64,000 nt of DNA, taken from positions 160,001 through 224,000 of the forward strand of contig CAXXXF010000014.1 in assembly GCA_963667175.2 (NCBI GenBank). Direction: 5' to 3'. The notes under the pieces were generated by a model that saw only the letters and a program-made list of their open reading frames with translations, had not been told where the DNA came from and did not search any database. Positions 54,086-56,511 of the stretch are shown in pieces; position 1 is the first letter of the stretch, and the number at the start of each line of letters is the position of its first letter. The position numbers and the translations under genes are program-made. This DNA is from Candidatus Latescibacterota bacterium (lineage in GTDB: Bacteria; Latescibacterota; UBA2968; GCA-2709665).

Positions 54086-54379
54086 TTAGGCAACGTGTTC
54101 CTGGCGTGCCCGTGCAAGCACGTAACTCGCCTGCATCCGCATCCAGTGATCGGTGGCGCCCCAGCCGATATCCTCCAGCGCAAGCGCCATCTTCGCGGAC
54201 ACCCCCGCCTTGCCGTTCAACACGCGCGATAGCGTACCTCGCTCGCAGCCGAGGCGTACCGCCGTCTCGGAGACGTTCCAGCCGACGTCATCCATGCTCT
54301 CGCGGATCAGTTCGCCCAGGTGCGGTGGGTTCAGCATAGGGCCGACACGATTGCATGTAACATCGTCCATGGCCAGCAT
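54086..54379 (-). CDS. higA: HigA family antitoxin (HTH), no intact toxin
   Basis: MLNPPHLGELIRE, TLSRVLNGKAGVSAKMALAL, WMRMQASY. Confidence 0.88.
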   Translation of the reverse strand: MLAMDDVTCNRVGPMLNPPHLGELIRESMDDVGWNVSETAVRLGCERGTLSRVLNGKAGVSAKMALALEDIGWGATDHWMRMQASYVLARARQEHVA

Positions 54380-54391
54380 TTCCTTCCGGCC

Positions 54392-54418
54392 AGTGATAAT
54401 CGATCAGGTTCACAACCA
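54392..54418 (-). pseudogene. 3' remnant of a HigB/RelE toxin gene
   Basis: Minus strand reads V-N-L-I-D-Y-H, the usual HigB C-terminus, just upstream of higA; the rest of the gene is absent. Confidence 0.5.
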
Positions 54419-54431
54419 CGCTCCGACCACG

Positions 54432-54984
54432 TACAAAAATGGCCCCGTGTAATCAAGGAAAGACACTGGCCACACCCCACTAAGATGCCGTTAAACGAGG
54501 GGTCACGCTCTCCGCGATCTCACGACCCGCCTCGATCTCCGCCCTTCTGAGTTCCCACGTCTTTTGCAGGTTGAGCCATAGCTGCGGCGTCGTGCCGAAG
54601 TAACGCGCCAGTCGCAATGCCGTATCCGCGCTCACCCCTCGCTGGCAGTTCAGTATCATCGCAATTCGGCTCACGGGCACTCCCAGCGCCTTCGACAAGG
54701 CGTTGGCCGACAGCCCGAGCACGTCGAGTTCCTCGCGGAGTATCTCACCCGGATGAACCGGTCTCATTCCATTCTTCGTGCTCATGTCCGCATCATGCGC
54801 GCCGACAGTATCCTCTTTTAGGGCCTCCATAAATCCATCTCGCCCTTCGATCCTAAGCCGTGATTGCGATAGTATCGCCGCCGCCGCGCCCGACATGGCC
54901 CGACGATGAACTACCGCTCAAGCTAACCGCCGTGTACGACGGTTGGTTTTCACCCCTCCATTACCTACAAAAATGGCCCCGTGT
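54432..54984. repeat. 19-bp direct repeat TACAAAAATGGCCCCGTGT at 54432-54450 and 54966-54984
   Basis: Exact match seen twice, bracketing the second higA. Confidence 0.85.
54480..54785 (-). CDS. higA: HigA family antitoxin (HTH), no toxin (frame open upstream to 54896)
   Basis: MRPVHPGEILREEL, SANALSKALGVP, ADTALRLARYFGTTPQLWLNLQ. Confidence 0.92.
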   Translation of the reverse strand: MSTKNGMRPVHPGEILREELDVLGLSANALSKALGVPVSRIAMILNCQRGVSADTALRLARYFGTTPQLWLNLQKTWELRRAEIEAGREIAESVTPRLTAS

Positions 54985-55144
54985 TGCCAGGGACCAAGCA
55001 GCAGAAAACAATATATGGTGACGACCGGCTTTGTCAAGCGCAAACGGCGGAAGGCGGGGAACAGCTATCAGCCGTCAGCATTCAGCCGTCAGCTTGAATC
55101 AAAGACCGTTGACGTCTGCGCCCTGAAACGACAGGCACCGAATG

Positions 55145-55237
55145 GGCGCGTCGAGGGCAGGACCTGCCTGCCGAGCAGGTCTCGGCCTGTCTGCCGCTCC
55201 AACGGGACAGGCAGGCGCAGGCAGGTGCCCTCGCTCC
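55145..55237. repeat. 93-bp nested-palindrome repeat, copy 1
   Basis: One mismatch to 56310-56402; contains gagggca..tgccctc, cctgcctgc..gcaggcagg and cctgtctg..caggcagg nested stems. Confidence 0.92.
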
Positions 55238-55317
55238 CGGGGAAACGAGGAGACGGAAGAGGGACACACAATGGCCCCCGGAAACGATGTGGCATCGAAG
55301 CCACTTGCTGGCATTTC

Positions 55318-55352
55318 AAAAAAAAATAACCGGGCCCTGAGGAGCCCGGTTT
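55318..55352 (-). terminator. Intrinsic terminator after the poly-proline ORF
   Basis: Minus strand aaccgggctc-ctca-gggcccggtt followed by A and a run of Ts. Confidence 0.88.
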
Positions 55353-55357
55353 TGTCG

Positions 55358-55537
55358 TTATTCATTATGTTCCCCTGGTGGAGGCGGCGGTGGAGGTGGT
55401 GGAGGGGGTGGCGGCGGTGGATCCGATTCGCTCGGCCTGTGCGGCCTGATTGATCTCTCCTGTGGCGCCCGTGGACGCGGCGGCTGAGATGGCCGCCCTC
55501 CGGGATCGCGTCTGTTCACTTCCGCTCCCTCGTTCAT
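55358..55537 (-). CDS. 59-aa peptide with 15 consecutive prolines
   Basis: Manual translation MNEGAEVNRRDPGGRPSQPPRPRAPQERSIRPHRPSESD-P15-GEHNE; ATGA overlap with the upstream stop; all four Pro codons used; terminator just after the stop. Confidence 0.7.
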   Translation of the reverse strand: MNEGAEVNRRDPGGRPSQPPRPRAPQERSIRPHRPSESDPPPPPPPPPPPPPPPGEHNE

Positions 55538-56037
55538 GCGTATAATCTTGCAATCTCCCGATCGGCGATATCAGTACACTTCTTGTTGATTTTTTCGTTG
55601 TGTCCGATGTCAGCATACCCAATTGCATCTGTAATTCGATACCCTTCATCTGACAACTCCCTGACTGCCTCCAACGCTTCATTATCCTCCAGTGTGCCGG
55701 TCTGAATGTCGGACCAAAGAGTTTCATATTTCGTTTTCAGATAGGAACATTGCATACCTACGTTGTTTAGAAGCGCAACCTTTCTCGGAAGGTCAAAATA
55801 CAATCCCAAAATGGAGATGAACACAATAATCGCATTCAGCCCGATTTTCACAAGTGCCGGGAGATGTTCGCCAAATGCAAGAAGCGCAACACCCACCATG
55901 GCCGCGATACCTAAACCACCCATGACAATTCTGTGCCAAATACGATACCGCGTGGAGAGTTCGTCATAGTATCTTTCTGCTGCCGCCGAGCGCAGAAGCC
56001 CTTCCCACGCAATCGACCTTGTCGTTTCTGAAACCAT
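55534..56037 (-). CDS. Two-TM membrane protein, SLATT-like
   Basis: 167 aa, lower GC than the flanks; RYYDELSTRY helix, two adjacent TM helices, helical C-terminus; GGAGGTGG RBS. The SLATT assignment rests on architecture only. Confidence 0.7.
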   Translation of the reverse strand: MVSETTRSIAWEGLLRSAAAERYYDELSTRYRIWHRIVMGGLGIAAMVGVALLAFGEHLPALVKIGLNAIIVFISILGLYFDLPRKVALLNNVGMQCSYLKTKYETLWSDIQTGTLEDNEALEAVRELSDEGYRITDAIGYADIGHNEKINKKCTDIADREIARLYA

Positions 56038-56090
56038 TGTTCCACCTCCATTTGAGTCAGACCGTGGCTCATGAAAGTAGAATGCAGTCT

Positions 56091-56120
56091 AAATTACCCA
56101 TATGCTGCGTTCGTTGTCAA
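56091..56120 (-). promoter_or_regulatory. Sigma70 promoter for the two-TM / poly-Pro unit
   Basis: Minus strand TTGACA-18 bp-TAATTT. Confidence 0.6.
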
Positions 56121-56272
56121 GGGTATTGGAGTGACTTTGACACGAATTCATATCCGGGCGAAACATCCCACGTACGAAAGAACGGGGGAAGGCGGGGAGG
56201 CAGCCGTCAGCCAAAAGCGGTTAACGATATGCCCCCCAGCACGGAGGATTTCTGATATCCGCGCCAACAGAC

Positions 56273-56511
56273 GGGCAACCACAAGGGTTGCCCCTACAAA
56301 AACACAGGTGGCGCGTCGAGGGCAGGACCTGCCTGCCGAGCAGGTCTCGGCCTGTCTGCCGCTCCAACGGGACAGGCGGGCGCAGGCAGGTGCCCTCGCT
56401 CCGGGGAGAGCGGGAGACGCAAGCGTTGCCCCTACAGATTCACGTGCGGCGCGAAATGGCCTGCGGCTTCACGGGATTTGCTACAGCGCACAAACTGACA
56501 GTTTGTGCTAC
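56273..56511 (-). repeat. Cluster of GTAG-type REP elements (56273-56297, 56412-56435, 56488-56511)
   Basis: Reverse complements GTAG-GGGCAACCCTTGTGGTTGCCC, GTAG-GGGCAACGCTTGCGTCTCCC, GTAG-CACAAACTGTCAGTTTGTGC: a GTAG foot plus a hairpin. Confidence 0.75.
56310..56402. repeat. 93-bp nested-palindrome repeat, copy 2
   Basis: Direct repeat of 55145-55237. Confidence 0.92.

Follow-up and report, generated by a model that had tools for sequence, protein, structure and literature searches.

What does a small membrane protein do when the last codons of its gene also hold the start of a second gene, and what is the peptide made from that second gene for? The question is raised by two minus-strand genes lying between repeats at positions 55145 to 56406 of a 64,000-nucleotide stretch of DNA from Candidatus Latescibacterota bacterium (assembly GCA_963667175.2, contig CAXXXF010000014.1, forward-strand positions 160,001 to 224,000), which as a whole is called the window and supplies the numbering used here unless a contig is named. 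The first gene encodes a 167-aa protein with two transmembrane (TM) segments and the second, an open reading frame (ORF) overlapping the stop of the first through an ATGA, encodes a 59-aa peptide with 15 consecutive prolines; an initial annotation made from the sequence alone had described both, and their coordinates are confirmed. Judged by sequence comparison, the membrane gene and the proline-rich ORF are a conserved, coupled pair across two phyla, and they very probably represent a real and translated gene pair. The overall best explanation, with an even chance of being right, is a self-contained two-gene module in which the peptide would act as a modulator or sensor for the membrane protein. 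It is also suggested, with chances a little below even, that the membrane protein is an effector of the conflict type (defence or addiction) and the peptide its regulator.

Distribution of the gene pair

Homologues of the membrane gene, with 28-37% identity, occur in 20 of 61 related genomes, and a profile of the family is positive in 34 of the 168 genomes of the phylum and in 8 of the 14 of the same genus. The genome from which the window comes holds three copies, namely the window copy and two further paralogues. Removal of duplicates left 34 distinct homologues in the phylum, for which the partner was counted as intact when a small ORF with at least 10 prolines started within 30 nt of the membrane gene stop. 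By this rule, 29 of the 34 are accompanied by an intact proline-rich ORF of 35-88 aa that overlaps or abuts the membrane gene stop (L028, L030, L031, and L058 being less typical), three (L012, L016, and L021) keep the proline-rich frame with a frameshift or stop within the first 10 codons, and two are without the small ORF, its core being deleted in frame in L020 and the ORF missing in L061. Four additional loci comprise one with an intact ORF, one with a 25-aa version, one with none, and one in which a membrane-gene remnant retains the peptide ORF. The background given by the same rule among the long ORFs of the window's own genome is 351 of 12,294 (2.9%).

In a second phylum, a distant homologue is present in 2 of 401 genomes and was reached by way of an unrelated locus. 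Both loci, whose GC content is 0.32-0.34, have an adjacent small ORF with PPPP or PPPPPP, and one of them (GC 0.34) shows a TAATG overlap and a peptide of the form N-P-R-P-V-R...PPPPPP. Moreover, in one representative sequence (P0137) the proline-rich tail is fused in frame to the membrane protein. The initial annotation had made its reading depend on homologues being followed by a proline-rich ORF, which is what these 29 of 34 loci and both loci of the second phylum display.

Coding evidence for the peptide

The small ORF is short, of low complexity, and without a protein-family match in profile library searches, and these properties would be expected if it were not a gene at all, but a frame open by chance in a C-rich spacer or an element conserved as nucleic acid. 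This seems hardly credible, given its occurrence in 29 of 34 loci against a background of 2.9% and the way in which it varies between relatives. The dN/dS of the peptide frame is 0.12-0.30 in all six pairs of four equal-length orthologues, and orthologue differences favour third codon positions (for example, 8/5/18 by position). Relative to the membrane gene, some lineages have the peptide in the +1 frame and others in the +2 frame, and the ORF is present even at 32-34% GC. Start codons and Shine-Dalgarno (SD) signals are also conserved, as in 22 of 26 intact loci an SD-like 4-mer is located 6-16 nt upstream of the start, inside the membrane gene. At these 26 loci the start lies in TATG in 16, where TAT is the conserved C-terminal Tyr codon in 15, and in an ATGA overlap in 8, one or the other being found in 24. 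The conserved E-x-R-Y-A tail of the membrane protein family may, therefore, partly be the imprint of the start signals of the second gene. An extension of the membrane protein by frameshifting or read-through was considered and rejected, since lineages differ in the relative frame and every peptide comes with a start and SD of its own.

Alignment of 23 peptides reveals invariant columns at R34, P43-P45, and P53, with P32 conserved in at least 90%. The invariant Arg stands in [RKQ]-P-x-R-[PN] and is followed a few residues later, at fixed spacing, by a PPP run, while proline runs of 3 to 15 or more are found in nearly all partner peptides. In the window peptide, which is hydrophilic throughout (maximum Kyte-Doolittle (KD) hydropathy over 19 residues of -1.69), the 15 proline codons at 55376-55420 are CCA (seven), CCG (four), CCT (three), and CCC (one). 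The mixture of codons had initially been read as a sign of selection on the peptide, as opposed to slippage; together with the homologue that keeps six prolines at a locus GC of 0.34, it speaks against slippage or an artefact of GC content.

Ribosomes stall on poly-proline and EF-P relieves the stalling, and the ORF is translationally coupled to the membrane gene. Thus, given the proline runs of nearly all partners, the ORF could be pictured as a cis-acting stall device that tunes mRNA stability or the yield of membrane protein through the proline run and EF-P, with a peptide that has no function of its own. This seems quite unlikely, as residues other than proline are conserved, including the invariant Arg and the [RKQ]-P-x-R spacing, and dN/dS is well below 1 over the whole core. 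In addition, the ORF lies at the 3' end, before the terminator, so that there is no downstream gene to control, and in the sister subfamily described below, as in one Bacteroidota partner, a conserved peptide is retained with proline runs of only PP to PPPP.

In this sister subfamily (L118-L122; genomes G029, G027, G025, G147, and G132), all five loci have a different conserved ORF of 50-64 aa in the same place, with the sequence pattern M-A-K-K...E-D-R-N-I-P-T-I-K-V-D-I-P-M-P-K-G-A-K-P-P-K. The partner at L125, a locus of the second phylum, resembles the sister-subfamily ORF (E-R-P-N-S-E-P-I-I-K-S-D-V-P...T-P-P-P-P-E-P). The partner peptides may be homologous across the subfamilies.

The SLATT-like membrane protein

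The membrane protein has hydrophobic stretches at about residues 37-56 and 59-80 (mean KD over 19 residues above 1.6). AlphaFold2, run with a 99-sequence alignment, models it as a helical hairpin with five helices (residues 4-58, 61-81, 83-112, 118-140, and 148-166) at a pLDDT of 96.8. The predicted fold is a long N-terminal helix running into TM1, then TM2, and then three cytosolic helices, and it has the architecture of the SLATT clan, in which a 2-TM hairpin is placed between cytosolic helices in a protein of about 150-200 aa. The family comprises 311 clusters at E<=1e-3 and 60 at E<=1e-10 (HMMER, 1.84 billion representatives), with members nearly all of 160-185 aa, an N-terminal motif M-V-S-x-x-T-R-x-x-V-W-x-x-L-L-D-x-x-R-x-x-R-Y-Y, and a C-terminal motif K-L-N-x-K-C...R-Y-A.

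The profile matches of the protein are weak and agree in direction, pointing to SLATT_4, SLATT_1, DUF4231, and the PADLOC 2TM effector model (E 0.009 for the window protein), and in the nearest ESM-Atlas cluster 19% of the members carry SLATT_4. The label SLATT-like, already used in the initial annotation, is supported only in part, as all matches remain under the curated cut-offs, and the protein is, by its sequence profile, SLATT-like and not a SLATT_4 member. The Pfam SLATT_4 model itself finds no gene in the controls or in any of the phylum's 168 genomes. SLATT effectors are predicted pore formers and, in SLATT-RT pairs, are tightly coupled stop-to-start to the partner gene, according to two sources (bioRxiv 10.64898/2026.04.29.721553; PMC9226505).

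Neither a solved structure nor a PHROG family was matched. Foldseek against the PDB gave no match at E<=1e-3 for the membrane protein, and a PDB search by sequence profile gave none below E 0.3. In a wide VIA-align comparison, the best Z of 9.6 fell on generic long-helix folds, inside the stated noise range for helical models. PHROGs contain no family for seven proteins and peptides, and a degenerate DNA pattern scanned over viral contigs returned four chance matches and no family member. In a word-indexed protein search, the window protein retrieved only itself and the family alignment 10 unnamed proteins without a Pfam label.

Proposed mechanism and loss of the peptide

According to the proposed mechanism, the first product would be a small inner-membrane protein whose 2-TM hairpin is preceded by one cytosolic helix at the N-terminus and followed by three at the C-terminus, and the second a hydrophilic, probably disordered, proline-rich peptide of 40-60 aa. 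The start of the peptide, and often its SD, is written in the last codons of the membrane gene, so that ribosomes finishing the first gene would start the second, and, through this reinitiation, peptide and membrane protein would be produced at a fixed ratio. In the cytoplasm, the peptide could then act on the cytosolic helices of the membrane protein as a regulatory partner, whereas the membrane protein would be the output and, by analogy with SLATT effectors, would perturb the membrane. The proline run would make the yield of peptide depend on EF-P and on translation capacity. A prediction of the complex between membrane protein and peptide scored 0.01 against a mark of 0.32 and speaks neither for nor against binding.

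Several observations weigh against this explanation. The assignment to SLATT falls short of the thresholds, with 20.7 bits against a cut-off of 27 for Pfam SLATT_4 (PF18186, E 3.6e-4) and 30.1 bits against 55 for NCBIfam SLATT_4 (NF033632, E 3.9e-7), and only 15 of the 99 aligned family members match SLATT_4 at E<=0.01. No match to the window protein or to P0129 was obtained by tblastn in plasmid and phage collections. Outside the 6 of 25 loci with defence-related or mobile neighbours discussed below, the neighbours are housekeeping genes (QRPTase, MoaE, aminotransferase, and aldehyde dehydrogenase among them) or genes of unknown function. L061 and L116 have no such proline-rich ORF, and the 34 loci amount to about ten lineages of one phylum, with two loci of another, in which kin are not independent. 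Finally, of ten close orthologues that represent the commonest type in the window's own genus, four are without an intact peptide ORF.

In three of these four orthologues a stop or frameshift interrupts the first 10 codons, and in one the proline core is deleted. Their membrane genes are intact and constrained (omega 0.04-0.12 mostly, and 0.28 in one near-identical pair) and, therefore, the peptide seems to be dispensable, at least from its annotated start. The three disruptions are independent of one another and all fall in the first 10 codons of a 49-codon ORF, one of them (L021) in the paralogue of the window's own genome at C3:345405-345908, and the core behind the lesions keeps its third-position bias (0/2/8 differences and an omega of 0.08 between L012 and L016). 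Either the lesions are recent or translation begins later, from a non-canonical start. A conserved Ile codon (ATA, ATC, or ATT), with a purine-rich stretch ahead of it, stands directly before the conserved R-P-P-R, and the sequence makes an internal non-canonical start at this codon conceivable. At L123, the peptide ORF persists beside a mere remnant of the membrane gene.

These losses bear on the main reading of the initial annotation, that of a classical toxin-antitoxin pair in which a constitutively toxic membrane protein is held in check by a labile proline-rich antidote made continuously. The layout of two adjacent, translationally coupled small genes is that of type II toxin-antitoxin and abortive-infection pairs, with which the module also shares a patchy occurrence (34 of 168 genomes), paralogues (three copies in the window's own genome), and location in variable islets; the partner peptide is hydrophilic and probably disordered, and some loci lie beside VapBC or HigA-like genes. 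However, an antitoxin should not be lost while its toxin gene is functional, and in the 4 of 10 close orthologues the membrane gene is intact and under purifying selection without an intact peptide ORF, whereas at L123 the converse is seen. Furthermore, most type II pairs place the antitoxin gene ahead of the toxin gene, and here the putative antidote is second in the operon and has no DNA-binding fold. A pair of this classical kind is, thus, considered unlikely, and the earlier proposal that the peptide restrains the membrane protein is weakened. A modulator, or a sensor or gauge, is preferred over an indispensable antidote, because close orthologues lose the peptide ORF and their membrane gene stays constrained.

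The modulator reading could be extended to a widespread and hitherto unannotated class of minimal immune or addiction module, in which a SLATT-like pore would be gated by a co-translated poly-proline peptide that reports the state of ribosomes and EF-P. In such a module, a disturbance of translation by phage or stress would shift the peptide-to-pore ratio and lead to depolarisation, and the start and SD of the peptide would be hard-wired in the E-x-R-Y-A tail. This extended version is a long shot.

Organization of the locus

The features of the window copy are collected in Table 1. One promoter-like site and one terminator enclose both genes, and the strong ribosome-binding site and strong terminator of the initial annotation were both found. 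The promoter proposed there stands in part, as its -35 hexamer is perfect and its -10 hexamer has only three of six matches, which is why the consensus scan did not list the site. The low GC content reported for the module is also borne out, with 0.46-0.51 across 55450-56050 vs. 0.58-0.66 in the flanks.

Table 1. Positions in the window of the two genes, their putative signals, and the flanking repeats.
Feature	Position	Strand	Basis
97-nt palindromic repeat, copy downstream of module	55145-55241		repeat search
Intrinsic terminator-like hairpin and T9 run	55328-55351	-	scan: 10 pairs, 7 G-C, loop of 4
Pro-rich peptide ORF, 59 aa, hydrophilic; ATGA shared with membrane gene stop	55358-55537	-	ORF list
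Peptide core: R31-P-H-R34-P, four residues, 15-Pro run	55376-55447	-	alignment, codon list
Membrane protein gene, 167 aa, two-TM helical	55534-56037	-	ORF list, hydropathy, AlphaFold2
Shine-Dalgarno GGAGGTGG, 4 nt from membrane gene ATG	56042-56049	-	sequence read
Promoter-like site TTGACA-18 nt-TAATTT (putative)	56091-56120	-	sequence read
97-nt palindromic repeat, copy upstream of module	56310-56406		repeat search; 98% identical to other copy

No RNA run containing the locus was found among the sequencing runs listed. Among contigs of four runs, one (X2) covers 55208-56296 at about 96% identity, with no indel listed within the peptide ORF; five listed substitutions in the N-terminal part of the peptide each change the residue. 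A further contig (X3) that joins 55183 to 56379 was given no weight, as its shorter side has 35 letters and lies in the palindromic repeat.

Genomic neighbourhood

Among 94 flanking ORFs at 25 loci, no neighbour is conserved. Restriction, SIR2_2, AAA_14/DUF4143, VapBC, HEPN_Apea, or transposase genes are located within about 2 kb at 6 of the 25 loci. No signal-generating partner (SMODS, SLOG, RT, or TIR) is found in these 94 ORFs, nor beside the window copy, and no transporter gene is seen across the 25 loci.

The last result bears on the idea that the peptide is itself the active agent, similar to ribosome-blocking proline-rich antimicrobial peptides, and that the 2-TM protein exports it or confers immunity. 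Such peptides of insects and mammals share with the partner peptides a short length, a high content of Pro and Arg/Lys, and motifs of the R-P-x-R-P and P-R-P type. Nevertheless, neither a leader nor a processing site accompanies the missing transporter gene at the 25 loci, and some partners, including the window peptide and that of L060, are neutral or acidic, which makes an active peptide highly improbable.

The window copy of the module is a low-GC insertion with cysH on one side and, on the other, a pair of higA-like genes and cysK. In G001 and G014, the syntenic interval runs from cysH to the higA-like genes without the stretch matching 55062-56269, in which both repeats and the module are contained. 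G009 and G012, the closest relatives, retain one partial repeat copy here and have a different cargo, namely a dockerin-like protein of 678 aa, to which G009 adds a gene of the GmrSD/HEC-05 type. On this comparison, the module can be regarded as a strain-specific insertion in a variable cysH-cysK islet, and it presumably entered by recombination at a resident repeat.

The location of the window copy counts, in turn, against the view that the membrane protein is an ordinary one outside conflict systems, for instance a stress or envelope factor, which has a small accessory subunit and lies in a variable region only incidentally. The housekeeping genes around many loci, the strong constraint on the membrane gene, and the lack of matches in phage and plasmid collections would all suit such a protein. 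However, the family is present in only 34 of 168 genomes and is patchy within genera (8 of 14 in the window's own), several divergent paralogues occur per genome, relatives lack the low-GC insertion that forms the window copy, and the sole family resemblance is to SLATT effectors. An ordinary membrane protein appears improbable.

The cysH-cysK interval is a hot spot of variable cargo in the genus, as observed in the window's own genome and six relatives. The GmrSD_N / PADLOC HEC-05 protein of G009 (L107, 5025-6740) is matched at E 1e-188, and G013 has a 723-aa homologue of the 678-aa dockerin-like protein of G009. In the window, positions 54086-54896 on the minus strand contain two tandem HigA-family antitoxin-like helix-turn-helix genes (TIGR02607, E 5e-27 and 4e-17), with no recognisable HigB toxin ORF adjoining them. 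A copy of a 31-nt repeat stands ahead of each HigA-like gene (54429-54459 and 54963-54993), and a strong promoter-like site, TTGACA-16-TATATT, is located at 55010-55037.

Flanking repeats

The initial annotation spoke of a cassette bounded by 93-bp direct repeats. Direct repeats do flank the module, but they measure 97 nt and are dispersed. A 40-nt core has two matches in the window vs. none in 100 shuffles, and the full repeat is an imperfect palindrome that folds at -55.5 kcal/mol (z -3.46). The window's own genome has 45 matches on many contigs, mostly to a core of 44-66 nt, and about 300 nt separate one core copy (C7:62618-62661) from a Y1_Tnp match (C7:62956-63120). By these properties, the repeat can be assigned to the dispersed elements of the repetitive extragenic palindromic (REP) type, with the pattern of the REP-associated tyrosine transposases (RAYT, Y1). 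Only four near-full-length copies exist in the genome, and they form two direct pairs, each around low-GC cargo of conflict type.

The second of these pairs (C14:124475-127859, L113, outside the window, with copies at C14:124475 and C14:127763) brackets a low-GC (0.46-0.51) block of three genes, which encode a PDDEXK_4 nuclease, a DUF4411 (PIN-like) protein, and a Peptidase_M78/IrrE-type protein. An integron cassette was considered for the module and rejected. The core-site motifs R'' and R' of attC are RYYYAAC and GTTRRRY, and neither is present in the repeats or in the 20 nt on either side; there is also no Phage_integrase match on contig C14.

A second hairpin repeat (GGGCAAC...GTTGCCCCTACAA) is found at 56269-56315 and 56407-56453. 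Of the four long copies of the 97-nt repeat, three have it as a direct neighbour, and a related genome contains it as well, in the region downstream of L012; the two repeats may form composite clusters. Moreover, the motifs GCTGACGGCTG and CCCCGCCTTCC (55043-55090 and 56181-56215) occur upstream of both the module and the higA-like promoters; therefore, the duplicated stretch around the insertion appears to be longer, and more diverged, than the 97-nt repeat.

Comparison with known systems and significance

Among described systems, the SLATT effectors (SLATT_1 to SLATT_6 and DUF4231), known from CBASS-like and RADAR systems and from those with a reverse transcriptase (for example, DRT10/UG17), are the nearest in size, at about 165 aa, and in their 2-TM hairpin between cytosolic helices, and SLATT_4 and SLATT_1 give the best, though weak, profile matches. 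The module differs from them in that no nucleotide-synthase, SLOG, or RT partner is found in the 25 loci and its only conserved partner is the 40-60-aa proline-rich peptide, of which the accessible text of bioRxiv 10.64898/2026.04.29.721553 and PMC9226505 makes no mention. Likewise, a full-text literature search, to which the founding SLATT paper (Burroughs et al. 2015) and supplementary files were external, found no pairing of a SLATT-like protein with a proline-rich peptide.

CadC of E. coli is an EF-P-dependent poly-proline protein used as a translational gauge. With EF-P gauges of this kind, the module shares a proline run expected to need EF-P in a low-copy regulatory protein; here, however, the run makes up most of a free-standing peptide, and the link to EF-P is a predicted one. 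The Rz1 o-spanin of phage lambda is another small proline-rich gene that overlaps a larger membrane-protein gene. An o-spanin was, nevertheless, rejected, as the 23 aligned peptides have no hydrophobic N-terminus, signal peptide, lipobox, or N-terminal Cys (the only Cys among them is located close to the C-terminal end of L057), the 25 loci show no endolysin or holin context, and no PHROG is matched. As for the repeats, the stable imperfect palindrome, the 45 genome matches, and the Y1_Tnp-adjacent core copy are shared with REP/REPIN elements and RAYT, whereas near-full-length copies arranged as direct pairs that bracket low-GC conflict-type cargo are, to our knowledge, no described property of REP elements.

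The peptide gene is invisible to gene callers, and annotation pipelines miss the second gene of the pair. A more general point is that a conserved C-terminal motif such as E-x-R-Y-A may in part reflect a start signal that overlaps it. If functional, the pair would provide SLATT-like effectors with a new kind of partner, a tiny proline-rich peptide as opposed to enzymatic sensors, and, given the poly-proline content, a link to EF-P and to the state of translation can be tested directly. It would also offer a two-gene system of about 700 bp, easily cloned, for the study of how 2-TM effectors are restrained or triggered.

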